Below are positions 1,454-64,000 of a stretch of 64,000 nt of DNA, piece by piece. Both the position numbers and the translations under genes were made by a program. The notes beneath the pieces are model-generated. The model ran no database searches, was not told where the DNA came from, and saw only the letters and a list, made by a program, of their open reading frames with translations. Position 1 is the first letter of the stretch; every line of letters begins with the position of its first letter. Origin of the DNA: Schmidtea polychroa. Its lineage: Eukaryota. The stretch spans positions 126,480,001-126,544,000 of the forward strand of contig CM097885.1 of assembly GCA_044892525.1 (NCBI GenBank). The letters run 5' to 3'.

Positions 1454-2254
1454 TTATTTAAACCAAGGATGATCTAATAACTTGTCAAAAAATAATCTGT
1501 CATTTGGTCGAAATTTAGTACATTCTGACACAAATAATGCAGCTGACTTAGAGCAATCTAAAATAGGAGGAATAACGCATTCCATTGTTTCTTCTTCAGT
1601 GTCAAATGCCATCTTAAATTCAAAACAACTGTATAACAAACATCCGAAATTAAATGTTAAACTTTGCTTAATGTTATATGAATGATCCAAAAAAGTCTCG
1701 GGACTTCTGAACCCAGTTGTACCTCGATTACTCATTGAAAATGGAGTGTGTGATTTATCATAAAGCATATATTCAAAATCAATTAGTTTAACTTCCAAAG
1801 TGCTTTTGTTAACCATTATATTTTCTGGTTTGATATCTAGATGATAGAATCCAATTTTTGACATTTCATGTACTATCGAAATTGTATTTTTTAAAATAAC
1901 TTTTAAATATTTTTCATCGTTTTCCTCTTCAATAAAATAAAATAAATCTAACCAATCTTTATCAAGAAATTCCATGACTACTGTTGACCACATATCTCCA
2001 TCGTGATAATCTAATAGTTTTGGAACATATTTATATTTTGTTAATCTTTTCAAAAAATATAATTCATTCGGAATATAGTTTTTGCATTCTTTATCATAAA
2101 CAAATGTGTTATAACTATGTTTTTTAGTAAATGATTTCAAAAGAACTTTCTTACCATCTTTATCTAAAGCTCGACAGACATTTCCTTTTACAGAGCTCCA
2201 AATTTCAAAGTAATCATAATAAGTTTGATTATATAAACTGTCAACTTTTTCCAT
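1454..2254 (-). CDS. Intronless PIM-like/CAMK-group Ser/Thr protein kinase (divergent)
   Basis: 266-aa ORF with VLLK, NELYFLK (alphaC Glu), HLDIKPENIMVN, VKLIDFE, GTTGFRSPE, FNFGCLLY and a C-terminal RL..DKLLDHPW; the motif order matches PIM-family kinases. Confidence 0.85.
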   Translation of the reverse strand: MEKVDSLYNQTYYDYFEIWSSVKGNVCRALDKDGKKVLLKSFTKKHSYNTFVYDKECKNYIPNELYFLKRLTKYKYVPKLLDYHDGDMWSTVVMEFLDKDWLDLFYFIEEENDEKYLKVILKNTISIVHEMSKIGFYHLDIKPENIMVNKSTLEVKLIDFEYMLYDKSHTPFSMSNRGTTGFRSPETFLDHSYNIKQSLTFNFGCLLYSCFEFKMAFDTEEETMECVIPPILDCSKSAALFVSECTKFRPNDRLFFDKLLDHPWFK

Positions 2255-10600: not shown

Positions 10601-11305
10601 GACAATAACAATGAAGGCTCACTCATGAGGGAAGAGCTAAGACTGAATTTGGGAAGAAGATAGGGCACGAATAAGCGATCTGACAATAATTGGGTCAACG
10701 AATAAAATAATACTAATAATATTATAATAATTTTAGCATCTAATAAATTTTCCTTTTTTTCCTAGGCGCTAGTGTGATCAGAACCTTCGACTTCACTACA
10801 GGGCTATGGCAGCACACATCTAATGCACAGTGCCAATGTTGCTTGCGACGGGTAATTAGTGATAATAAAACATTATGTGTTGGGTTAGGGTTGGCAAAAA
10901 TTGTTGATTATATAGAAAGTTTTGAACATAAATTTCTTTTCACATCCAATTTTTTTGTACTATTTATATATATGTTGGGCTGAGTCGGAAAATCAATTTG
11001 GGAAATTAGGAAAATAAAATAAGCAAGAGGCTAAAGAAAAACAAAATAAAATAAACAAATTACGAATAAAATAGAATAAGATATAAGAAAAACAATAATT
11101 AGGAAATAAGAATTAAAACAAAAATAAAAATAGAAAATTAAAATAGGACAATAGAAGAACGGATAAAATAACGTAAAATTCAATAAATAATAAGGAAATT
11201 AAAGAAATAAATAGAAAATATAATAAAAATAAAGAAAATAGGAAGAAATAACCAAAAACAAGAAAAATAAATTAAAGCAACAAAATTAAGCGGTACTCAA
11301 TTCTG

Positions 11306-11339
11306 ATTGGTCCGCACACACAGAAAATTAATATATAAA
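11306..11339 (+). promoter_or_regulatory. Candidate Pol II promoter (reverse CCAAT plus TATA) upstream of element A
   Basis: ATTGG at 11306-11310 and TATATAAA at 11332-11339, upstream of a GTAAGC donor-like site at 11568. Motif match only. Confidence 0.3.
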
Positions 11340-11361
11340 CACGCACAAAAATCATAAAATT

Positions 11362-11430
11362 ACTGTTAATCTAAACATTCTACAGGTAAGAGTACTTCTA
11401 AATAAGACTGTTAATCTAAACATTCTACAG
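11362..11430 (+). repeat. 24-nt perfect direct repeat enclosing a 45-nt GT..AG segment
   Basis: ACTGTTAATCTAAACATTCTACAG at 11362-11385 and 11407-11430; 11386-11430 begins GTAAG and ends CAG. Confidence 0.85.
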
Positions 11431-11778
11431 ACCTACAATAACCGACAAGGATAATCAACAATCAAAATCATTTTCTAGGAGCATTCAGAGATCGAAATCG
11501 AGACAACTAATTACCGAGAAAGTACCGAATCTATTTCCGACTCAGCCGACAACACTACAAGCATTACGTAAGCAGATTTTTGTTTGAAAGTAATAGTAAT
11601 CATGAGATGTTCGTAAAAGTAAAATTAAATGAATTATGATTTTTCTTTTCGGTTGATCCCTATAAATATTTTTCTATGATTTTAATGATTAAATAAATGT
11701 TTTAATGATAAATGCGTTGTTTTAGATATATTTATGAATTAGTCGGAAAGTCTATAATTTTATGATTGTGCATTTTAT

Positions 11779-11915
11779 GAGAAACGTGGAGTTGAGACGT
11801 TTCATGTCATGGTGTGAGGGGCCTTCGGGAGCTCAGCGGCGGACATGAAACGTTTCAATCACGCAGCTGACTTGGGCCGAAAAGTGGGGCTTCCTCACGG
11901 GTCCGTCGCTGAAGG
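11779..11915 (+). ncRNA. Conserved structured RNA module (5' module of element A), family unknown
   Basis: 17-bp helix 11792-11808/11842-11858, inner CC(UUCG)GG hairpin, and a 30-nt block 11886-11915 identical in copy B; copy B shows compensatory changes in the long helix. Confidence 0.7.
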
Positions 11916-13292
11916 TTCCTAACTTAGTTGAAACAGTGGACCATAGTTATGTGAGAGATTTCAATTAGAAAATTTAGCTACGTTCATGATTCACAGTGAT
12001 TGAGGCGGCCACCACCAATTTTTCGTATCTGGAAAACTGTTATCCACCATAAGTCTGATTTTTAGCGCTAGTTCAGGCGACCGTAATCTAGAAATTCAAG
12101 TTCTTCAACCCTCATCACATCTTGAGATTCAACCATCTACTCGATTTTTCCGAAAGAATCATCTTAATTCGAGCATTTTACTCCAATACCTGATAATTAG
12201 CTGATAGGGTAGTATGAACAATTCATAAGAAAAAATCAAAACACAAAACTTCCAATGTAACAACACTTTATTTTTGAAAACGCTAGTTAACCAAAATATA
12301 TTTACTTACCAAATATGACCGAAAATTAGCCGTCGGAGCAAGATTCATGGTCGTCTTTTAGATAAGTAGTCCGATTCCCTGTCGTAGAATATATCCAACC
12401 TTAGAGAAAGCCCCGCAGTCATAAATCCAAATTCTGCAGGCGAAAGCGAGTAAACGGAGATGAACTGACAAACACATAATGTTTCAGATATTGTCACCCG
12501 GTAGAATCTCATCCAACTACCCATGTGTGAATGCGAAATACAATTGATATCGACAGTAGACACAGATAAGCATCCATGAGAATAGCACAGGACTACCAGC
12601 TTATCATGATCAGCGAGAGTATTTGTTGTAATATGTGTGCGACATGAATTATTAGATAGACAGCAGCCGGTGAGTGGAATCGATAACTATCACCGTGCAG
12701 TACACCGAACCGACCAATAAATCACTGACTTTTATCATGGTGCGAAAGTGTCTCGTGACACTGATAATGAGTAACAAATTAATCCGCTAGTCGACTTGGG
12801 GGTCAACTTTCTACTGCAAATTATTCTTGTAATGTTCACGTTTTTGACCACAATAATAATAAATAAACTGCCCTGCGTATATTTAGATCCTCGGTACGAA
12901 AGATATTAAATGGGAGAAAGAAATGCCAGTTGGGGAATAATTCGTCTCGACTATGTTAACTATAATAGTCTTGGGTCGAGGTCTAATAATGAATTGAGGG
13001 CTTAAGGGGGAATTCGGTGAGTATTGAATTCATTAATAGTACAATTGCCACCCCGGTCACGGATTTTGCATTTGTCAATACAATCGTGCATAATTATGTA
13101 AATAAAATTATGTAATAAATCTAGCAGTAACGAATTATTTACCTGAGATTGTAAGTTTCTTACTTGTCAGTATGGTCTCTTTATTTTGTTGTAAGTATCA
13201 AATATGAATAAATAATCTGTAGAGTAGAGTGATGTCTTCATAAATGCCGTATATTTGTATATCAATTTTCTTTTCTTTTCTAGCTAATTGTC

Positions 13293-14042
13293 ATGCTACC
13301 GAATAATCGACCAGCATTACGTCCTTGTTTCTCCTGCGCCGATAAAAACTCTATTATCAAGGATCTGCAGGACCAGATCGGTCGATACAAGAAGAAGATC
13401 GACGAGCTGGAAGGCACATGGTTCAGCCCAGTGCAAATGAAGGAGGTTCGAAAGAAATTACATCGCAGTGAGCATTGTCGGGATGCCCTGATTTCTGAGA
13501 GCCGTTCCCAACGGAGCTTGATAAAGGAGCAATCTGAAGCGCTCCACAAAGTATATTTACAAGCAGCAACTACGAGGCAATTAGTCAGTATACCCATTCA
13601 CGAAGCGGACAATGTTTTCCCAATGCATCACGACACCTCGTTTAAGTCGTCACCTCCGGCCAAGAAGTCTTGTCGGGAATGTGTTGAAGCCGACCTCTCC
13701 CCCAGGCATCCAGATATCGTGTTACCCAAAATCAGTAAGGTGCCAATCGCCGGTACCTCTACCTCGGCGGTACCTCCGATTAGTCAGGTGGCACCAAAAC
13801 CCAAGCGACGGCAATTGTCGAGAGCCGATCGCAAGAGAAAACAGCGAGAGCGCGCGGCCGCCAAGCACAACGAACAGCCAGCGGAGAATCCTATTAGTGT
13901 TCAGCACCTTCCGACGACAATTGATCTGACCATTGGGGTCCCAGGGCGAATTATCTCCGCCGCTGGAGTGACCTGGGAGGAAAATGCCTCCGAATTCTTT
14001 GATTTGGAAGAGTTGTTGGCCGACACTGAGTGGGAAAAATGA
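13293..14042 (+). CDS. 249-aa protein of unknown family (CxxC, coiled coil, CxxC, basic NLS-like, acidic-aromatic C terminus)
   Basis: Open 249 codons; ~85% aa identity to the 62150 (-) ORF over residues 11-95, with many synonymous differences; Y-tract-TAG acceptor 9 nt before the ATG; AATAAA at 14164. Confidence 0.85.
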   Translation: MLPNNRPALRPCFSCADKNSIIKDLQDQIGRYKKKIDELEGTWFSPVQMKEVRKKLHRSEHCRDALISESRSQRSLIKEQSEALHKVYLQAATTRQLVSIPIHEADNVFPMHHDTSFKSSPPAKKSCRECVEADLSPRHPDIVLPKISKVPIAGTSTSAVPPISQVAPKPKRRQLSRADRKRKQRERAAAKHNEQPAENPISVQHLPTTIDLTIGVPGRIISAAGVTWEENASEFFDLEELLADTEWEK

Positions 14043-14323
14043 GAACTCTCTGTCCGTTCAACCCGCTTCGAAAGACGAATATCAATGTTTCTTTTCTTAT
14101 TTTCTCATCATTCATGTATAACTGTGCGTTGTAAATTATCTACGTTTTATCCCATTGTGAGGAAATAAATCATGTTTGTTACTAATGTTCTTATTAATTT
14201 TGTAAAGTTTATGACTTAGATTTTAGTCATTCTAATCAATATCAGTAGAAATCTTTACAGGATCTATAAGTATCTTCTAAGTCCTGGTTGTTAGTTTGAA
14301 CGAACGGTCTGATGATATGAGTA

Positions 14324-14590
14324 GACGTAAGTCCTTCTATCGGCAGTCAAGGGAAGGAAGTCGAGGCCTCAGTGAGGAGTAGTCCGAAGGTAGGGGCTCA
14401 CCTGCTTACTGGCGTTTCGCTGACATAGTACATTACCAACGTGAAGCGATTCACGGGTACTATGCTGGAATATAAGTTGTGCGGGGTACCGCTCGGAGTT
14501 ACCAAGGGAATGGATAAAACAGACAAAGTAGACCATCATCTCCTAGGCGAAAAGTCAAATGGTAGAGGTGAGTCCGAGTAGTGCCCCAGC
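14324..14590 (+). ncRNA. Conserved structured RNA module (3' module of element A), family unknown
   Basis: GAC(GUAA)GUC and GUGAA(GCGA)UUCAC GNRA hairpins; CAUAGUAC/GUACUAUG helix is CGUAGCAC/GUGCUAUG in copy B; the first 26 nt are identical in both copies. Confidence 0.65.
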
Positions 14591-15318
14591 ATATACTACC
14601 CAACAATACCAATGGTAATTAGTTACATGTATCATCATGATAAATTTAGATGTGAGTTTTTGTTGTAATTATCAAAATAATGTCATAATTAGAAATTTTA
14701 AACTACCCACTACCAGTACACCACACAAATTGTCCAATTAACTTACATAGTGCCGTTTCATATACATATGAAATAGCGACGAGATACACACTAACCATAT
14801 TAATTGGTGCAAAACCTATGTGAGAACATTTAGCTTCGTTGTAGATTCCACTCGCGTCCATTTTCAACTTCATTCGTGTAAAATACAGTGTAATAGAATA
14901 TATTTTCGTAGAAATTGAATTTCATTTTTTTTCACCAATTCATTTTACCCAGTCAAGTCAAGTAACTAGATAATGGCTTTGGAAATCGTAATGCAAGAAA
15001 AATTATATTTTGAAATATTTTTGATTTAAACTTAAGCCTATAAATAAAAGTATAAAAAGACAGAAATGGAATTAATTTTTAAATGGTAAAATAAAATATA
15101 TAATGAAATAAAACTTACATATTTGATATTTATTAGGAATTCTTATAAATTTATTTTCATGAGTATTTTGAATAAAAAAATTAATTGTTTTGTTTTGATA
15201 TGTTAACATAAATTTTTTAAAGTTTTAATTTTTATATTAAATAACAAATGGCGATTTATTAATATATATTTATTGTAGTCTTTAATTAATTTTATTGTGA
15301 TAAATATTTAGATATTTC

Positions 15319-18300
15319 ATGCCCTGCAAAAGAAGCCGTAGAAGTTCCAGCGTAAGTGATGAAAGTGTATCTATCACAGATTATAATGAAGATTCAATAC
15401 AGTCTGCTTCAAGTAGTATTTCTACAAGGAAAAGGCGCAAGACTATTGATTCTCGTTTAGAAGTAATTTTGAGAAAATTATTTAAATCAAATTAATTTTT
15501 AATTAAAATTAACTCTAAAATAGATTGGCCACTGTCAAGAAATTTTAGATAAATTGAGGAATGCCAAGGCTGAAGATGGTCACTTGATAGCTGATTCATT
15601 TATTAGATTACCGAACAAACGAACAGCATCTGATTATTATGAGATCATCGATACGCCAATTGACATTATCAAAATTCAGTCTCGCATTAAAAACGATGAA
15701 TATGAAAATTTCTTTGATTTTCAGATAGACATTGAACAATTAGTTGAAAATGCTAAAACATATCATTCACCTTCATCACTTGAATATCAAGATTCGATTC
15801 TATTGTGGAATGCATTTGAACAAGAAAAACGAAATATTTCCATAAAAGCTGATGTAAAGGCAGAAAGCAGTAATGATATTATTTCAAAGTAAGTTGAGAA
15901 CATTAATTAATTACTTAGGCGCTGAAGGTCGACCTAGACGTAGTAGAAAACGAATAGCTATATCTATTGATGATGGAATGAGTGATCAAATTTCTCTTAC
16001 AACTTCTGAAGATTCTAGAAATACGTCAGAAATTAGTAGCAACTTTTCCGAAAATCCACTTGAAGCTTATTTTACTTCCATCGTTACTCAAAAAACCGAA
16101 GATGGTAGAGATGTGGTTGGAGCTTTCACTTTTATACCATCAAAGACTGTGAGATTTGCTAATTAAATTAAATTACTTTCATAATAATGTTAAAAAACAG
16201 TTATAGTTATTGAAATTGCATTATTTACTTAAGTTTTTATTCTTATTTTTCCTTGTCATTATAAGAATAATCATTAAAAATTTATTTGTCCATTGATTTA
16301 AATTCTTTTTTTTTCAATGAAAATGGATCAAGAAATTACAATAAATAAATTAATTATTATCATAAAAGTAAGATGGATAAATTTTGGTCAGTAGATTAAA
16401 TATAAATGAAGGTTTATGAAAATTTAATTTTTTAATAATATCAGTGGCTAATTAGTATAATGAATATTTGCATTATTCCTCACACCAAGTTCTGTACCAA
16501 ATAATATTGAATAAATTAATTTATTTATATGAACACCTAGGTTAAGTTAATGAGAAAAAACATGAGAAAAAGTACTGAATTTTAAAAGCCTATAAAAGAT
16601 GAGTTTCTTGAAGCCTGGACAACTTCAATGTTTCAAGAAGGGACTTTTCCTTTTCATATGTCAATAGATTGTTAAAATTAAATCAATTTAAGGTGTTGTC
16701 AGTTAATTAACCCGATTGAAATTTTATAATGAGAAATTATGGTATTACATATGACAAATAATAGCCCGGATTATTTTTATTCATTTTTCGTAACAGGAAC
16801 TGTAAACATAAAACAATTTCATGTCTCATGACAAATTCCATCAAATACCCATTACTGTGGTAAATCTCGACTGACTTGATTCCGTTTCCTTTGCTATTCC
16901 TCAGACACATGTTAAAAATGTTAAAAATTGTCGCGTTATATTCGGGCTAATGCGGTAAATGTAATGATATATTATTGTCTGAAAATGAAGAGAAAGAAAA
17001 TTGAATAATTATATTTTCGCAGTAGTTACTTTTGAAACTTTTAATTTATATAATAATTTTATTAATTTAAAAAATTTGTTGTTTGCTAAATTCAATGTAT
17101 TAAATCAATGATGAGCAACATGTGGCGTAATAAGAAAATATATACAAAAAATAAACTGTTAAATAGTAACATTAGTTGTCAATCTATATATTTATAATAG
17201 ATATGTACAAGTATTTTTGTATTTTTGAAAACGATGTGACTCTGCATTCTTTTTTAAACTGTGGGTTTCCAGAGAACCGTAAATATTAAAACTATGAGTT
17301 AACATGCGCCGACCCACCGAGCTTGATGCGTTAAACAATGAGAGAAATTGAAACACTTATCTCTGTACCTCTTATGGCCATTGAGCAAAACAATCTTTAA
17401 ACCAAGAGAAACATATATGATGTCTAGTTGGTTCTACGTCTACTCTAATTACATTGCATCACCCGATATTCTGAATTAAATCAATACACCTGTTTGCAAT
17501 GAATAAAAGCATCTATTTAGTAACAAAGTAGGTATAATATTATTAAGAGAATGTATATGCGGCTCGAACGAAACAAACCAATTAAATTTCCAAAAAATAT
17601 TTTTTGTAGTTTTTGTCTTTTTAAAATTATGTATAAAATTATATACCAGGCGTATCCACAGTATCAAGAAGTTATAAAGGAACCAATCGATCTTAGAACA
17701 ATAGCAAAACGTATTAAATCAGGCGTTTATTTGAGTATTGACGATATCGAAAGCGATTTACAGTTAATGATAAAAAATGCGAAAATATTCAATGAACCCA
17801 AATCGGAAGTATTTCAAGTAAAAAATTTTTAAACCAAAATGTCAATTTGTACTCAATTGGATTTATGAAATTAGAATGCAGTGGAATTGCAGAAAATATT
17901 GAAAATGAAACGAACCGAAATGGAAACCGGGGTGAAAACTCAGAAAGCAAAACGGTACTAGTGTTAATTCACTAATTTGAAATATGAAAGTAAACTTATC
18001 TAGAGGACGTAAACGGAAGACTCCACTTAATTTGACGGAGAAATATGCAAATATGGAGTCACCAAAAGATAGCGATGAATTTGACAGCGAAGAACCAGAG
18101 GATAGTTTGGAAAATAGTGTTGATTATGACGAAGAGTTGAATATTCCTCCGGCTGATAGTCGATTTCCACAATGGCAGTTGTATAAAACCATTACCGGTA
18201 TTACTCTGAGTAACGGGAACAGCCTATGTGCTCCGTTTATGAAACTGCCATCTAAAAAGTATTTTAATTGGTTAATACAATATGTGATAAAATGAACTAG

Positions 18301-24300: not shown

Positions 24301-27300
24301 TCCAATAACTTGAGATTGAGCCATGATTGAATTGGAAACATTGGATAATTGTTCAACGCTTTGGCTAGTAAAAATTTGAATTGTGTTGATCTTTTTAAGA
24401 GCTCGATTAAATAGAATATCATATTCATAAGTTAGCAAGTTTATCTTTTTATCGCTAATGTCATAAATGGTTTCAGATAATTTAATTCAGGTAAGTTCCT
24501 CTTTTGTCATTTCATGATTTACAGCAATTAAATCGTTGATTTGCAATCGTTTTGATAAACTTTGAAAAATTGAATTAATGTCAATTAGAAATTTTCCATT
24601 AATAATTTGCAACGATCTTGTTGAGTCACGCAGATACAAAACACATGTCTACTTTCAAATATTACCTTCGATATATTGCTCATTGAAATACGACATCAAA
24701 CATTCATTATCTTCCATATTTCACTAAAGCCGAAAATTCAAAAATTTACATAAAAGATATCTTTTAAACAAAAATTCCTCGAACCAAACTCGAATTACCA
24801 GAATTAAAATCAATTTTCTAAATCCAAATTAATATCAAAATCTACAATAAAAAAAATAGCAACCTACTTCTCGCGCACACTAACAAGAATCGGTTTAACC
24901 ATACCGCGCGCACAGACGCGATGCCAAAAGCACCAAACAAACTGCCAGTCAGAGGTAAATGCTATTCCCCCTCTNNNNNNNNNNNNNNNNNNNNNNNNNN
25001 NNNNNNNNNNNNNNNNNNNNNNNNNNNNNNNNNNNNNNNNNNNNNNNNNNNNNNNNNNNNNNNNNNNNNNNNNNNNNNNNNNNNNNNNNNNNNNNNNNNN
25101 NNNNNNNNNNNNTGCTTTATCAATGTAGTATTGATTCATTTAGACAGGAATTTATGTTTATATAATATGTTTATAATCATTTTCTCCTGCATCTTTATTC
25201 ACTTTCTGAATTAAATTCAAAAATCTCCGTAAGCCAGTAACTAGAGTTGCAAGTATCTCTAGTAGTTGGCCACCATACACTGTAGGGGAAAGTACCTTTA
25301 AGTTTATATATAATGTAGTTCAATTTCTCCAATTCTTAAATATCCGTCTCTAATTCTTTAAAAGTTGTTCTATTATTTTATTATATAACCATTTTCGTAG
25401 AAATGCTAATATAAAATGGAAATATATTTTTAGAAATTTAAAGACAGTGACATTTATATATGCGAATCCAAATATTCTGTGATCGATAATCGTTTCAAAA
25501 AATTAAAGGTTGGATTAAATCTAGTTGCTGAATCTAAATAAAAAGAGAATTTAGAATTTGACTTACAAGAATAATGCAATAAAAGATCATTTTATTATCC
25601 GTGAAGATCCATTAGTTCTCCAGCGTACATATTCAACAGTTGCTACTGAAACTGTAAAACACGAATCGAATGAATTTATGTTTGTTTTGGAGAATACCAA
25701 AGAAGTCTGCCAATTCAATATATTAAAAAATTAGAAATTAATATTGTAATTAGAGTGTTCTTCAAGAAGATCGATCAGGAACTGAGAGTTGTGTATACTA
25801 TGATCAATATATATGTGACAATGGTTTCAGCGTCAAAGTTGGTGAGTAATTATCATTAACAATAATGCATGAATATCTAACCTCGAATAGGAGATTATGT
25901 TTATGTGAAGGATTCGTCAAGCAAATTACAAATAGTTAGAATTGATCAATTATGGAAGAATGTGTTGTTAGTAAAGAATTTTTACATTATTAAATTTTTA
26001 ATAAATTATTAAATTAAAAAAAAATTTAATTGAAAATTTTTATCCAATAAACGAATAAACGAATGAATAAATAGATTTTTGTTAAGTTGCCTATATATTG
26101 CTACGCGATAAAGACAGTAAATATAAAATTTGACAATCATTTAATTTTAATTGACAATATAACATTTTTTAAATTTCAATATTATCTTAAAATGAATTTT
26201 TTCCTATTGTGTGATAGAAATTATCCCATTTCTAAACTGCTACAGTATAAGTTATAATATATTTAATATTATTATTGATTTATATTGTGTCATAACAGTA
26301 ACTTGATTTGATATCATTTTTTCAAAGGATTCTTATTTATTTGTATATTAAATTTAATTACTTGATTAAGCTTTAACCCTTTCCAGCCCAAATTTTTTCA
26401 AAACAAAAAAAAATATATGCAGTAAGTAGGTACCAAAACTACTTATTTTATCATAAAAATATTTTACTTCATTTTTTTTGTTGCCCCCTTAGAAAAAATC
26501 AGTATGATTCCATTTGGCAACATTGGGCACATAGGTACCATACGTAAGATGGATAGATGGTAAAAATAAAATGCATTTTTCTTTGTTGTTACTAGTTTTT
26601 ATTGTGATATATTTTAAAACAATTTTTTTCTTTTGCAAGACAAAGTGCAACTTTACATTTATCACATTGCGTTCTCGAGTATGATGTTTTACATAATCGG
26701 CAGCGCTGTTTTTGTTCCACATGACTTGGCCAATGTCCTATGCCATCGTACTGAACATCTACAGTAGGAGTTATTGTTGTTACACGTTGTTTTTTTGGTA
26801 TACTGGGAACCGTATCTGAAGGTCTTCCTCGTTTTCGTTCTGTAGACTTGCCAACTAACAACAGGCCATTCGCAATTTCTGCTTGAAATTTTATAAGTGG
26901 CATATGTTTATTGCCATTCTGTTGGCAGTGTCGTCTATACAAAAGCCAAGAATTAACGATACAAATATTTATGAAGTTAAATATTATTCGTAAATATAAC
27001 CTTTTGCCCTTTATATTTATACGCTAGAGTTCTACGAGCATATCGTGAAGATCGACACCTCCCATAAACATATTGTATTCTTTTACAATGGCTGGTCGTT
27101 GGATGTGTACATATTTTTTGGAAGCTAATGACCATCTTTTGATGGTATCAAATGGTAAATGCCCTACATAGTTCGATGCCAAATGAACTGGTTTGTTATC
27201 TAGCCATTTTGTCACAGTAATGTTATTTGTAACGTCTGTTCTGAAGTCAAACGATCCTCTGCCTCGTCGTTTTAGAATGGAGTCCGCTTCTAAATCTATG

Positions 27301-30300
27301 CCAAGCATACGGCATACACGCACTGTACCAGTAGCCAAAAAACTTTTTTCATTCAGTGCAACTAATAATTTATGAGATGTGAATCAGTTGTCCATGAACA
27401 CTTTGAAATTTTTATTTGGTTCTAAATTTTCCAACAAGCGAAGAACAATGTGGCCACTTATACCCAAAGTACTCTCAGTTTTTGCGGTTCCTTTTCCAAC
27501 ATAAATTTCGTAGTCATATATGATACCACTTGCCCCTGCACGGGCAAATACTTTGATGCCCCACTTGTGGGGTTTATTCCTTATATATTGTTTCAGAGAG
27601 TTTTTACCTTTGAAAGGTATCAATATTTCGTCAATTGAATTGAATTCTTCAGGTTCAATCTTACCCATATTATACTTCACCTGGTTTAGAAATGGCCTAA
27701 TTTTAAACAATTTGTCGTGGGCTGGATCGATTCTTGCAAGGGCTTTGTTGTTATCATTGAAGTGTAAAAATGTTCTAAGTTTATCGAATCTATTACGAGG
27801 CATAACACTTGCTATTTTGTCATACCTAGTTTCAGCCATCCAATACATCCGATAACTAGGAACTTTTATTATTCCACTAAGTACCTGAATTCCTATAAAT
27901 TGTTCTATTTCATTCGGACTTGTATTAATTGATGTACCTGATTTTTGTACAGAATATAAATTTGTTTGCTCGGCAATGTTGTGTATAATGTCATTGTCAA
28001 TAAACATTTTAAAATACTGATACACTGATTTATCATCGTGTGGTGGATTTGAAAAATTTAAATTAAAATTTGTATCCACCGTATCGATTTCTTTTTTACG
28101 CCATGAACATGGTCGAACAGAATGTGCAGGTACATTTGGAGTAATATTTTCTAGGTCACTTTCACTTTCTTCTTCCTGGTTCGAAATATCTTCTTCGTCG
28201 GAATCGTTACCACTTGTAGTTGGTCGCTGCTCATCTATCGGCTCAGAGAAATGTTGCTGCAATAAGTCCTCTTCTAGATCATCATCTGACATTTCACTAC
28301 CAGAATCCTGAATCATACGATAAGCTTCTTCAGATGTAAGGGTGTTTAGATTTATCCTTTTATTGAAAGACATCTGAAAAAAAATTATTTCAAACGATAA
28401 ATATAAGAACAGAAGCAAATAGGTGAACCTAAATTAAATCTCAGACAAATTCAGGCATTTAGTGAGTAATATAATCTATAAAAACTTAAAGTTTACCAGA
28501 ATTATAGTTCAACATAAGAAGTAGGCCAAGTGCCCAAAGATTCCAATTGGAATCACAAATTCAATAGGTTATAAAATTATTATAAACATATATTTACCTT
28601 TTGTTCTTGCAATATCACAAACACTAAGCTTTTCTTGAAGTAAATCAATTTTTATTTTAGATAAATAATAACGAAACCACTTATAAAACAACACTTTTTC
28701 TTCGATGTGCGCAACATATAGGTTATGTGAGAGCAGGCTTACAAATGTCGTTACTTTTCTGACAGCTGATACAAATTTAGTGAGATAAAAATTGTGCCAA
28801 CTGTTAAAAACATATCTTACTATAGTTCTCACTAGTTACTGCCAACCGTTTTGGTAGTAGAGAGAAAAAAACTGAGTTTTTAACTAATGATTCCATTTGG
28901 AATCACTGGGCTGGAAAGGGTTAATAAATGTACGTTCATTAAATTTCAATTAGGCATCAACTTAAAGCACGTAGAATAATTAAAATTTGTCGAATAACTA
29001 TTTGAGTGCATGATATTTATTATTATTATTTAGTAATGTTTGATTATTATTTTTATTATTTAATTTGATCATTATTTTTAATAATGTTTTATCACTTTAT
29101 TATTTATTATGCTTATTAATTATTATTTTTAAACAATTAAATGATAATTTAAGCTTTTTGCTGCGAAAAATATATTTAATAAAAATGAAAAATTGCAATG
29201 TTTACTTAAGTTTTTATTCCTTTTTTTTCTCTGTCATTATAAGAATAATCATTCAAAATTTAATTTTTTATCTGTCGATTGATTTAAATTCTTTTTTTTC
29301 CACTGAAAATGGATCAAGAAATTACAATAAATAAATTAATTATTACCATAAAAGTAAGATGGATAAATTTTGGTCAGTAGATTAAATATAAATTAAGGTT
29401 TATGAAAATTTAATTAATTGAATTTAATTTTTTAATAATATCAGTGGCTAATTAGTATAATGAATATTTGCATTATTCCTCACACCAAGTTCTGTACCAA
29501 ATAATATTAAATAAATTAATTTATTTATATGAACACCTAGGTTAAGTTAATGAGAAAAAACATGGGAAAAAGTACTGAATTTTAAAAGCCTATAATAGAT
29601 GAGTTTCTTGAAGCCTGGACAACTTCAATGTTTCCAGAAGGGATATTTCCTTCTCATATGTCAATAGATCGTTAAAATTAAATCAATTTAAGGTGTTTGT
29701 CAGTTAATTAACCCGATTGAAATTTTATAATGAGAAATTATGGTATTACATATGACAAATAATAGCCCGGATTATTTTTATTCATTTTTCGTAACAGGAA
29801 CTGTAAACATAAAACAATTTCATGTCTCATGACAAATTCCATCAAATACCCATTACTGTGGTAAATCTCGACTGACTTTATATTAGTATTTTTTTAATTT
29901 AAAATGATCATTTTTTTAAAATAATGTTTTATTACTATTTATAATCTATTATTTATTATTATTATTATTATTTCTTGGTAGCATCATAAATTAATAGTTC
30001 AACAAGTAAATGATAAAATAATATTTTCAGTATATTATTTTATTCTTTATTTTATTCGTTGACTCAAATTAAATTGACTTATCACGATTACTTATTTTAC
30101 ATTTTTAAGAACTGGTTGAAATTGCAAATAATATTAGATAAAAATAACATATTAAATATTTGGCAATGAAATCTCAATCATAGTAAATGTATAAGATTTT
30201 AATAAAAATGATCACCTTGATATAAAAAATGTTTATACACTTAGTAGACAATGCATAAATTTGTTGAAACCGATTTGTGAAAGTATTGAAATTTTACTAA

Positions 30301-60336: not shown

Positions 60337-60854
60337 TTATTGTTTTTATTTTAATATAATTTTCGGTGATTTTTGAAATTAATTATTAGTATTCATAAAA
60401 TTTTCGTAATAATATCTATAACTTGACATTTACTGACAACGGTTTCTTATTGGTTAATAATAATGATAATACTATAATTTTTCTTGATAAAAAAGTCTAA
60501 ATATCAAATGGTTTGTAATCAACATAATATAAACTGGCTATTTTCTTAAAAGATCAAAGAAACGGTATTTTATTTGAGAGATTGAGTACAGAAAATAAAT
60601 TCTACTCAAAAATTGTGGTCCAAAAATAGATATCGGAATATATTGCTTATACATAGGTATTTTTATTCATTTTTACTAAAAAGCAACTAAACGAAATTTT
60701 TGTACAATTGTACTTTAATACAATTTAGCTATACAGTAGATAAAACATGCAAAATGAGTATGAAAGATGTTTTTGAGGCATTAGGGTAGCTCCTCCAATG
60801 TTTAGCAAACAAATGATGCGAGAATTGCATTTGTTCCTCGTGTTGGCGGGTGAC

Positions 60855-61114
60855 TACCCGGATGACCCCCTTCATTACCGCTTTCAGTCCAGAGGATGAA
60901 TGCCCCATATCGATTACGCTCGTCTTGATTCTGGTCATTGCCGAGCAGGACCCGTACATAATCTACCCTCCAACATAGCACCCGTGAATCGCTTCACGTT
61001 GGAACTGTGCTACGCCGGCGAGACGCCAGTAGGCAGGTGAGCCATCTCCTTCGGACTACTCCCTACTGAAGCCTCGACTTCCTAACCCTGACTGCCGATA
61101 GAAGGACTTACGTC
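60855..61114 (-). ncRNA. 3' structured RNA module, copy B
   Basis: Reverse complement aligns to 14324-14590 with the hairpins preserved. Confidence 0.65.
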
Positions 61115-61406
61115 ATTTCATTTTGTCACCCATCGCAAGATTTCTAGCTGGAATTACCAATTGACCAATATTCCTCATTTTTCCGAAAAACTCTCAATGC
61201 TATTTACAAGTTCATATTATTTTCTAAGTTCAACACACAAGATAACGCATACATAAACGAAAAACTTTTATTATTAAATTTACTACACAAACACCTAGAG
61301 GATTTATACAAGGAATTTTACACGAACTGAATAACACCAAGGTAGAAAACGACAACAGAAAAGTTCGATCCGCTACGGAGAAGGAGGCCATTCTCCGGGG
61401 AAATCC

Positions 61407-62150
61407 TCATCTCTCCCACTCCGAGTCGGCGAGTAACTCGTCCAGATTAAAGAACTCGGCGGCGTTTTCCTCCCACATCGCCCCGGCGGCGGAGATAACT
61501 CGCCCGGAGATCCCGGTTGTTGGGACGACCACCGTTAGATCACTATTGTTGCTGACTGGAGCGATGATTGACGATGTACACTACTTGACAGACGCCCGTT
61601 CCCGTTGTTTCCGTTTGCGTTCGGCCCGAGACAGCTGTCGACGCTTAGGCTTTGAGGAGGTGATCGTTTGTATGGTTGATGAGGACGTGAGATTTAGCTG
61701 GACCTTACTGGTTCCGGTGAATACAATCTCTGGGTCTTTAGGAGAGAGCTCGGATTCTACACATCCATGGCAAGACTTCGCGAGTGGAGACGAAAACTTG
61801 ACAGAAGTATCATGGTGCGCTGGGAAGAGATTGCCGGCTTCGTCAATTGGGATCTTCGCTATTTTTCTAGTGGTCGCCGCTTGTATGTATAGTTTATGCA
61901 GTGCTTCCGACTGCTCTTTTATCAGGCTCCTCTGTGCTCGACTTTCGGAAATGAGAGCATCACGACAGTGCTCGCTTCGATACAATTTCTTTTGGGTCTC
62001 CTTCATTTGCGTGGGACTAAACCATGTCCCCTCCAACTCATCGATCTTCCTTTTGTACTTTCCAATTTGCGCTTGTAGATCCCTGATAACTGAATTCTTG
62101 TCCGAGCAAGAAAAGCAAGGTTTAAGAATGTTGTTGGTACTTGAAGACAT
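61407..62150 (-). CDS. Paralog of the 13293 ORF; 189 aa to an in-frame TAG, 247 codons if read through
   Basis: TAG at 61581-61583; the same frame continues to ..SGRVISAAGAMWEENAAEFFNLDELLADSEWER* (TGA 61407-61409), matching the C terminus of copy A. Confidence 0.8.
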
Positions 62151-63695
62151 CTTGAATAGCTATGAAGAGGAAATGCGAATAAAATCAAACTAAGTCAAAT
62201 GTGAGACATCATCATCTAGTCACACTCATACCATACTGATCATAGATTATCATACTGACAAAACGAGTTTATTAGCCTGAAGAGATTTCGTTACCCTACA
62301 GATCTTGTACGCTTGGGGTCATTATTTATACGAGAGTGGATCATTCATGCAAGATTTTACCGAAGGAAAGTAAGGTATTATCCTGGATAAGGGAAATTAC
62401 AGGTTGATGAAATTACAATTTAATCAATTTACCTGAAAACAGTACCTAACATTTAAAGAGAGTTTAAATTAAATTATAGATTTACCCCAAGACAAATAAT
62501 TTGGATGTGTAGATCTTATGCATGGATAGGCGATTTATCTTTAAATTAATTATTCAACATAAATAAGACTCTATCAATTGCTCTGCAATTATTTGTTTGC
62601 GATAAGTAAAAGTTTGTTAATTAATTTGCACTTGTTTAGTTGTGAGAAAATCAAAATGATTAAAACAAAGTTGAATATTTAAATGAATTTAACCACGTGT
62701 ACCCAAAATGTCTGTCTGGCCGCTATCTATCATTTCTGATCGGTGAGAAAATCGGGTGACTGTCAGTAGTATGTTTCAGTGAATTATGTTTCAGCTGACG
62801 CGTCAGGTTGGATTTCCTGTGATTAACAGTCTGTATAATCTACATATTGCGAGTAGCCTCTGTGATTATTCTAAAGCGCATGGCGCATGAAAATTTTCTC
62901 TCACCTACTTCTACTTAGTCATAATCGCTGACTGATGTCTTCATGCTCTATGCCATGCCGGTGTATGCATGCAGGTGTATTTTCCCTTATGACATATTAC
63001 ATCACTGACGAACCATGTATCTACCTCAAATGCTGCTGGTTATCTCTCATGGATATTTTGGAAAAACCGGATTTCTACATCATCAATGTTGGAATTAATT
63101 CACGATCCCTCAAATAGGATTTACTAGCTCGTCTCGTGGTCCTCCATCGCTATCAATGTACGCCTGCTACTGCTGTCAAATTGGAGATTTATTACTTATC
63201 CCAATGCTGGATTTTCCACCCGACGGGATGTGGACATTTTATGGTTTACTGGGTAAACAATTATTCTAATAAATTATGTTTTAGGGAAATACATTTTTAC
63301 TGATTGGAGTTATTCGCTTTTATTTTTAATGATTACTTAAACCTATTTAATTACGTGATTTCATACAATTTCATCTTTGAGAGGACATATAGCCGATGGG
63401 AATAGCGATTTCGCAAAAATCGTTAGTCGAAAATTTCAAGATTAAATTTCTAGCGAATTCGAGAACTATGACAACTATGGCATACATAGCACTACCAAGG
63501 TTGGACGGTTTTTTAACGAAAGACTTGCCTAGATCTACTGGATGATAAAGAAGAATTTTAACTTGATCAGACGCTGTTATAATACGCTAGTGCGACACCC
63601 TCAATCACTGCGCGAACATATCAAAATTTCTCCTATTGATCGATTCATTCTCCTATCCTACTTCCTCGTATGAATTTTCATAGAATTTAGTCACT

Positions 63696-63835
63696 CCTTC
63701 AGCGACGGACCCGTGAGGAAGCCCCCACATTACGGCCCGAATCAGCTGCGTGATTGAAAAGACCCCATGTCCACCGGCTGAGCTCCCGAAGGCACCTCAC
63801 ACCATGACATAGAGTATCTCAACACCACGTTTCTC
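63696..63835 (-). ncRNA. 5' structured RNA module, copy B
   Basis: Reverse complement aligns to 11779-11915; identical 30-nt block; long helix kept by compensatory changes. Confidence 0.7.
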
Positions 63836-64000
63836 CAAAATTTTAAATATCATAAAATCAACAAATAGTAAAAATTCCTTTCATTCAAATAAAATATTTA
63901 TTACCAATTTACTAAAACATTTAATTAAGTAAAACCTTCAAATCAAACGAAAAGAGAAAAATGATTATTAAATTTAGACTACTATAAATTCATAAATATA

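Follow-up and report, generated by a model that had tools for sequence, protein, structure and literature searches.

Among retroviruses, HIV Rev, HTLV Rex and HERV-K Rec combine a basic helix and oligomerisation with a response element that is present only in unspliced RNA, while MMTV sag is an ORF within the U3 part of the LTR, upstream of the main LTR start site, that encodes a membrane superantigen. Solo LTRs of retroelements are usually regarded as non-coding remnants that lend at most a promoter. Foamy-virus Tas (Bel-1), according to a published account, is a small element-encoded protein with a C-terminal acidic activation domain; it is made early from a spliced mRNA, targets promoters of its own element and is expressed mainly from an internal promoter (PMC13220597). 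Burro/GYPSM1 elements, in the parts of their description covered here, are giant gypsy-like LTR retrotransposons of planarians with a high copy number, a total length of about 30 kb and a polyprotein of 4,873 aa; these parts deal with internal and accessory ORFs, without an LTR-internal ORF, introns or RNA modules (PMC6431247). The literature covered yielded no description of an LTR-internal ORF for Burro or other retrotransposons, although the primary Burro descriptions and their supplements may annotate one. Within that literature, the kind of element reported below is known, and its LTR-internal gene is the part for which we found no description.

In the 64,000-nt stretch of Schmidtea polychroa DNA that we analysed (the window), the ORF under study lies wholly within a solo LTR of a Burro-like Ty3/gypsy element of about 30 kb (Table 1). 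The original prediction had placed the ORF in an element with two structured RNA modules, which holds, but had missed that the sequence is the LTR of a giant retroelement and that a spliced transcript is predicted for the ORF itself. The LTR of the second copy in the window (copy B) starts about 666 nt past the window end, and its partner LTR, 26.8 kb away, carries an open ORF. Two full-length elements of 30,191 and 30,340 bp, each flanked by 4-bp target-site duplications, contain the ORF in each LTR; their LTRs measure 4.15 kb and are 99.9% identical, and the window solo LTR matches them at 70-85% in conserved blocks. Examination of 73 LTRs identified 27 solo LTRs with a 4-bp duplication and 11 that adjoin internal sequence, while 35 fitted neither pattern used. 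We regard the anatomy itself as very probable: a Burro-like element with a conserved protein gene inside its LTR.

Table 1. Positions in the window of the solo LTR, the parts of its gene, the RNA modules and the second ORF copy.
Feature	Position	Strand	Remarks
Left 4-bp target-site duplication, TATA	10969..10972	+	
Solo LTR, 3,619 bp, TGTTGGG...CCCAGCA	10973..14591	+	Ends and blocks as in both LTRs of full-length elements
Inferred U3	10973..11360	+	A-rich tract, reverse CCAAT box, TATA box; block conserved across subfamilies
Reverse CCAAT box, CTGATTGG	11303-11310	+	
TATA box	11332-11338	+	29 nt after CCAAT start in most copies
Predicted exon 1, about 25 nt	11361..11385	+	Recurs as last ~24 nt of mini-intron
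Predicted 45-nt GT-AG mini-intron	11386..11430	+	
Predicted non-coding exon 2	11431..11567	+	Almost ATG-free
Predicted intron 2, 1,716 nt	11568..13283	+	GTAAGC ... pyrimidine tract CTAG
RNA module 1, two-armed stem-loop	11775..11915	+	Inside predicted intron 2
Copy A ORF	13293..14042	+	249 aa
ORF domains	(residues)		CxxC, helix 13-39, GTWFSP kink, helix 46-98, PxHH, CxxC
ORF domains, C-terminal half	(residues)		Low-complexity linker, basic helix 177-192, acidic amphipathic tail 226-249
Predicted poly(A) signal, AATAAA	14164..14169	+	
RNA module 2	14320..14480	+	Past poly(A) signal, upstream of primer-binding site of full-length elements; inferred U5
Right 4-bp target-site duplication, TATA	14592..14595	+	
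Copy B, 3' LTR of longer element extending beyond window	60837..64000	-	
Copy B ORF	61406..62150	-	Second CxxC is CHGC; in-frame stop at 61581-61583

Between the LTRs of the full-length elements we found a 4,732-codon polyprotein (stop to stop), four downstream accessory ORFs and one upstream. The Pfam order along the polyprotein is Retrotrans_gag, zf-CCHC, Monjiviricetes_fusion (E 2.6e-70), RVP, RVT_1, RT_RNaseH, rve and Ank. Burro, as described in part, has the same layout, with gag and CCHC knuckles, a fusion glycoprotein placed in frame ahead of PR-RT-RH-IN, and ankyrin repeats, and likewise MATH/TRAF in an accessory ORF, the TRAF ORF here lying downstream of the polyprotein; the Burro-like assignment rests on this published description of layout (PMC6431247). 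One accessory ORF of 478 aa contains RING and MATH (Pfam), and a RING ORF follows the 5' LTR of the full-length element. In contrast to the described Burro cargo, neither BIR nor BCL2-like domains were detected by a single-sequence Pfam scan of the element ORFs at E 0.01. The primer-binding site is that of tRNA-Pro and is matched by genomic tRNA-Pro genes. It begins 7 nt after the 5' LTR, and in neither of the two full-length elements inspected did a purine-rich polypurine tract stand out just upstream of the 3' LTR (L034:950-987, G000:C1). A tandem tRNA-Pro(TGG) array with a 475-bp unit was also seen at L201 (G000:C1:130.90-130.95 Mb), and its pattern has 1,555 matches genome-wide. Evenly spaced runs of 3-4 ORF matches occur at G000:C1:72.64-72.70 Mb, C158 and C1:145.06-145.16 Mb; in the one run examined (L181-L184), the LTR and internal region are repeated head to tail.

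A second element family encodes an LTR protein of 253 aa with 40% identity overall and 56% in the core. Between the two families gag, env, PR, RT and IN are 91-98% identical (fusion protein, 91%), and the other accessory ORFs, at 35-72%, have diverged about as much as the LTR protein.

All motifs attributed to the ORF beforehand are present in the 249-aa frame of copy A: CFSC (C12, C15), the DLQDQIGRYKKKIDELEG...SEALHK segment, CREC (C127, C130), KPKRRQLSRADRKRKQRER and the tail WEENASEFFDLEELLADTEWEK. Copies A and B share 157 of 249 residues over the whole protein and 72 of 85 in residues 11-95, where 51 synonymous and 16 non-synonymous differences (pS 0.92, pN 0.08) agree with the proposed identity of about 85% and mostly conservative or synonymous changes. 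Copy B had been presented as a similar protein with CHGC as its second motif, which is correct, but its in-frame stop at codon 190, which leaves 189 aa as it stands and removes the tail, went unmentioned. The ORF is not single-copy: a genome-wide search with it returned 6,285 first-look candidates, all 150 of those scored matched, and many of these 150 form pairs 20-27 kb apart. The 135 loci searched gave 129 full-length matches and 6 split by frameshifts, and an internal stop was found in 18 of the 129.

For the analysis of selection, 102 distinct copies were codon-aligned after duplicates and copies with unclear ends had been dropped, and Nei-Gojobori dN/dS was calculated from at most 400 pairs per bin; the pairs are not independent, and saturated pairs were not used. 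Over the whole ORF dN/dS was 0.165, 0.137 and 0.090 at pS 0.15-0.3, 0.3-0.5 and 0.5-0.74, respectively, and 0.32 and 0.23 among near-identical copies. The purifying selection proposed originally, for which dN/dS across copies had been suggested as a check, is thus seen at about 0.09-0.17 between subfamilies and not near 1. Residues 11-95 gave 0.072 and 0.035 in the two unsaturated bins, and at pS >0.15 the basic patch ranged over 0.10-0.13, the tail over 0.06-0.16 and the two linkers over 0.25-0.43. Constraint is focused on the helical core, basic patch and tail, and is relaxed in the two linkers. These data bear on the notion that the open frame is a by-product of RNA structure or composition, with no protein made. 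Expression of the ORF does rest on sequence prediction, but synonymous sites are saturated with the amino acids retained, the positions of acceptor, ATG, stop and poly(A) signal are conserved, and protein similarity outlasts a DNA similarity that is largely lost, and we consider such a by-product scarcely credible.

In four young clusters, private changes had a dN/dS of 0.31 (0.13-0.50), a value biased downward by unsampled replication rounds and by the choice of top-scoring copies, and shared changes one of 0.19 (Fisher p = 0.03). Eleven presumed LTR pairs differed by 6 non-synonymous changes, 1 stop and 3 synonymous changes; a twelfth pair (L069/L072, 60 kb apart, 7 synonymous and 4 non-synonymous differences) was excluded as possibly not one element, and its inclusion gives 10 non-synonymous, 1 stop and 10 synonymous. 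Small as the numbers are, the LTR-pair differences look neutral after insertion, and the simplest and most likely reading of these comparisons is that selection acts during replication and is followed by drift once a copy has inserted. Alternatively, the ORF could be a host-domesticated multicopy gene, with solo LTRs kept intact by selection on the animal and a protein that benefits the host. The fact that 111 of the 129 full-length matches lack an internal stop, the solo state with target-site duplications of at least 27 of the 73 examined LTRs and the private dN/dS below 1 would all suit domestication; however, the copies had been selected for their resemblance to an open ORF, searches from distant queries turn up many broken copies, the LTR-pair differences include a stop and are mostly non-synonymous (only 10 changes), and shared changes are more constrained than private ones. 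Domestication therefore appears very improbable. Strong selection on a protein that probably acts in trans, in a high-copy element, may point to a cis preference or to spread of the element by infecting new cells; the fusion protein is 91% identical between the two families.

AlphaFold2 predicted confident helices at residues 13-39 and 46-98 with the GTWFSP kink between them, a further helix that covers the basic patch (177-192) and, in the tail, short helices of low confidence; the remainder was modelled as disordered (pTM 0.42 and 0.34 for the models). The coiled-coil or heptad segment noticed earlier corresponds to the predicted long amphipathic helices, the basic patch to a conserved basic helix (dN/dS about 0.1), and the acidic tail to a conserved acidic-hydrophobic stretch with a net charge of -8 over the last 24 aa. 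The two CxxC motifs of the original prediction proved partly general: all four cysteines are retained in 102 of 102 close copies, but the second CxxC becomes CxxH in the 253-aa family and both pairs are absent from distant relatives. Because of this last absence we rejected the idea that the two CxxC form a zinc-binding core that defines the protein. Over 65 sequences W43, P46, E69 and H113 are invariant, and R58, R63, D64, R71, Q73, R74 and Q80 nearly so. In the tail, R-I/V-I-x-x-x-G and D-L/I-D/E-E-L/M-L-A-D-x-E recur across both families, the pattern hydrophobic-D-hydrophobic-D/E-E-hydrophobic-L-A-D-x-E being common to both, and acidic-aromatic C-terminal stretches occur in distant relatives also. 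The aromatic WEEN..FF of the tail is lost in the second family, whose last 28 residues have a net charge of -5. The basic patch was not recognisable in the most distant genomic copy examined, which is a broken copy. An LIR, the LC3-binding motif, was considered for SEFFDL and dropped, the aromatic residue not being retained in the second family.

The description of the protein as an orphan is upheld by the searches made. Pfam, run singly and per member, gave only generic coiled coils below cut-off as its best matches and no confident host or transposable-element family; a word-indexed homologue search with the single protein confirmed 0 of 941 candidates; a profile search of PDB sequences returned nothing at E 1. 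The Foldseek search proposed originally, run on the AlphaFold model against PDB and BFVD, found nothing at E 0.001, the model being low in tertiary information. VIA-align wide retrieved generic coiled coils alone (best Z 6.5), ESM Atlas was uninformative (best 0.83), and 0 of 38 candidates in viral contigs were confirmed. Distant relatives, with 26-38% identity over the N-terminal core, were found among public gene models (9 in one search, 12 in another) and among old genomic copies. The Pfam families listed for 10 of the 12 public models are all those of unrelated host proteins; in models P0001-P0013, judged by their Pfam accessions, the distant ORF is joined to transporter, convertase, phosphatase, actin, MCM and other proteins. 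Most simply, these public gene models would be chimeras in which LTR exons have been absorbed into gene predictions, and in practical terms such exons appear to contaminate host gene models.

Compared with 62 LTRs of other subfamilies, the window LTR has only four conserved blocks: the promoter region, module 1, the ORF and module 2. The arrangement of motifs around them predicts a spliced gene whose transcription start site would lie at the end of U3. The mini-intron starts about 54 nt past the TATA box. Of 64 copies, 19 could not be parsed, and among the other 45 a mini-intron of 45-52 nt was detected in 32; read by eye, it is precisely absent in five copies (L081, L087, L102, L125 and L130). 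Exon 2 measures 140-250 nt across copies and ends at a GTAAG donor; a GTAAG/GTAAA donor is present in 45 of the 64 copies examined. Over 32 copies exon 2 contains a single ATG in 4,790 nt, compared with 20.1 +/- 3.6 in dinucleotide shuffles, a figure that is no p-value because the copies are related. At the other end of intron 2, whose stretch between module 1 and the acceptor is unconserved between subfamilies, a pyrimidine tract with YAG lies at most 12 nt from the ATG in 103 of 113 copies (2% in the control). An AATAAA follows 118-158 nt past the stop in 93 of 105 copies, compared with 1.7% in neighbouring 40-nt windows. One LTR of the second family has the same order of CCAAT, TATA, mini-intron, donor and acceptor, and no canonical AATAAA was evident after its stop. 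Contigs of four runs, compared with the window copy, contained no joint at the predicted splice sites; in the presumed-RNA run X1 the introns and U3 were covered in a DNA-like pattern, and this run is therefore uninformative on expression either way. Together, the conserved sequence signals predict that a single LTR contains both ends of a complete spliced transcript, and the default product of the LTR promoter would be exon 1-exon 2-ORF-poly(A). MMTV sag and other LTR-overlapping retroviral ORFs are similar in that the coding sequence lies inside the LTR and is duplicated at the provirus ends. The ORF here differs from sag in lying downstream of the predicted start site, and for that reason one solo LTR would hold the complete spliced unit.

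Several smaller observations concern the leader. Exon 1 is repeated exactly at the 3' end of the mini-intron (window 11361-11430), and in each subfamily, as in the second family, a change in one repeat copy is matched in the other. The spliced 5' end could anneal to the second repeat during strand transfer and so restore the mini-intron; precise loss of the mini-intron in a few copies is compatible both with reverse transcription of a spliced RNA and with a deletion between the two repeats. In exon 2, a conserved TCGACTCAGCC-type motif (11536-11555) is almost the reverse complement of the first LTR bases, TGTTGGGCTGAGTCGG (10973-10990), and resembles part of the primer-binding site, and the motif and the LTR start may engage in long-range pairing in genomic RNA.

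Both of the structured RNA modules proposed originally covary. In module 1, 16 of 49 pairs changed on both sides and 97% of cells were paired (31 sequences), and among 500 shuffles 0-1 reached the observed value on four of five measures and 273 on the fifth. Module 2 had compensatory changes in 7 of the 32 pairs of the four helices that were in correct register (49 sequences). The structures were derived from the same alignments, hence slid controls favour them. Rfam gave no convincing match and no ribozyme family on 11000-15500; a mir-5697 match (E 1.4, 20.6 bits against a cut-off of 50) was dismissed as chance. Run against 12 loci, the module-1 model detected homologues in two, L197 and L200 (E 6e-11 for L200); the LTRs of the second family gave no match.

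The position of the modules raises the question of a switch similar to that of Rev or Rex, in which the early spliced product would bind module 1 (or 2) through its arginine-rich helix, oligomerise, and promote intron retention, poly(A) read-through or export of full-length RNA. The likeness to Rev, Rex and Rec is one of analogy: the protein has a basic helix and predicted oligomerising helices, and the covarying module 1 lies in a predicted intron. Because module 1 is intronic and module 2 is past the poly(A) signal, both would mark unspliced or read-through RNA only. The element must avoid splicing and polyadenylation at its 5' LTR, and loss of intron 2 was seen in none of 117 copies. Strong conservation of the basic helix KPKRRQLSRAERKRKQRER (dN/dS about 0.1) also accords with such a switch, as does the failure of the module-1 model to match the LTRs of the second family, whose protein has diverged too. 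However, retroviral packaging and reverse-transcription signals normally reside in intronic and U5 structures, and since the modules occupy these usual positions no new binder is needed. The protein, for which no homology to Rev, Rex or Rec was found, has an acidic tail that by eye fits the spacing of a leucine-rich export signal poorly, leaving no clear export signal, and its patch, in which Lys is as frequent as Arg, has the look of a nuclear localisation signal. We therefore consider a Rev/Rex-like switch unlikely. The simpler reading, because both modules are outside the ORF's predicted mRNA, is that they are packaging or reverse-transcription (priming) signals on the full-length RNA; judged from sequence, this is more likely, with a response-element role possible.

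The combination of a basic helix with helices prone to oligomerise and an acidic amphipathic motif at the C terminus fits a Tas-type activator best, and we tentatively favour, at a little short of even confidence, the reading that the ORF product is the element's own early trans-activator, selected during replication of the element. The LTR promoter would by default produce a short spliced mRNA encoding the protein, which would enter the nucleus via its basic helix and self-associate through its N-terminal helices, probably zinc-capped in the families that retain the cysteines. Either by itself or by way of a host factor, the protein would then dock on the LTR promoter, and its acidic tail would recruit co-activators. 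Transcription would rise as a result, including read-through into full-length RNA, in which intron 2 and the two RNA modules are retained. Selection would most likely operate during replication of the element and not on resident solo LTRs. In its mode of action the protein would resemble foamy-virus Tas without apparent homology: composition and conservation of the tail are consistent with an acidic activation domain as in Tas, and early spliced origin and promoter action are parts of a putative analogy with the portion of the Tas literature covered. No sequence or fold similarity to Tas was found in Pfam, PDB or BFVD, and, whereas the Tas gene is described there as having an internal promoter, the gene here is predicted to have promoter, introns and poly(A) signal inside the LTR.

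Several observations count for a trans-activator, namely the location in both LTRs, the conserved promoter, donor, acceptor and poly(A) motifs, the pattern of selection, and the recurrence of the tail motif in both families. The LTR protein has diverged with its LTR while gag, env, PR, RT and IN were conserved, as expected if it is matched to its own cis-elements; such fast divergence is not specific to a promoter-matched protein, because the other accessory ORFs have diverged to a similar degree. Against a trans-activator, no DNA-binding fold is recognisable and the model consists of bare helices, WEEN..FF is not kept in the second family, and the basic patch cannot be recognised in the most distant copy; selection confined to replication has against it a private dN/dS that is still below 1.

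The protein could also be host-manipulating or structural cargo, acting on apoptosis, ubiquitin, chromatin or silencing pathways or as a nucleic-acid chaperone in particles, with no direct regulation of the LTR. In the parts of the literature covered, Burro carries abundant cargo linked to apoptosis and ubiquitin (PMC6431247), protection of stem cells is reported for a Burro1 RING-BIR protein (summarised in PMC13465017), and Burro is a target of PIWI silencing (PMC8532177), which makes an anti-silencing role plausible. TRAF, RING and ankyrin are found in the element here, and a short conserved amphipathic tail past a disordered linker could be any protein-docking motif. Yet recognisable cargo genes have host homologues and this ORF protein has none, and its predicted position as first product of the LTR promoter suits a regulator; we judge a cargo role distinctly unlikely.

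The short spliced mRNA would be the default product, and replication needs RNA that retains intron 2 and reads through the 5' poly(A) signal, which creates an early/late problem. Complex retroviruses solve this problem with regulators made from spliced mRNAs. A bolder proposal, possible but doubtful, is that every LTR is a complete spliced gene for a new class of viral regulator, so that a retrovirus-type early/late switch would have evolved independently here. Such a proposal, at the same guarded level, would comprise a regulator with cognate RNA or promoter elements, thousands of solo LTRs supplying the regulator in trans, and a duplicated 25-nt exon 1 that lets the spliced leader and mini-intron be rebuilt at each reverse transcription.

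In each solo LTR here, the conserved ORF of 249 aa is predicted to be accompanied by a promoter, two introns and a poly(A) signal. Since the LTR is predicted to be self-contained, loss of the element by recombination would leave behind a gene able to function, perhaps at thousands of places. Were the protein an early regulator, a Ty3/gypsy element would be using the regulatory logic of complex retroviruses, and this would offer a direct handle on how Burro, which is a PIWI target and is reported, in the sources covered, to aid planarian stem cells, controls its own expression.

Elsewhere in the window, a single-frame protein kinase ORF (1454-2254, minus strand) and a remnant of a piggyBac-type (DDE_Tnp_1_7) transposase (26592-28373, minus strand) were present and are unrelated to the finding. 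The end of the solo LTR lies about 730 bp upstream of the start of a polybromo-like gene in the same orientation (window 14591-15319). This gene (MPCKRSRRSSS..., with bromodomain-like exons) was identified by eye, and the solo LTR could influence it.
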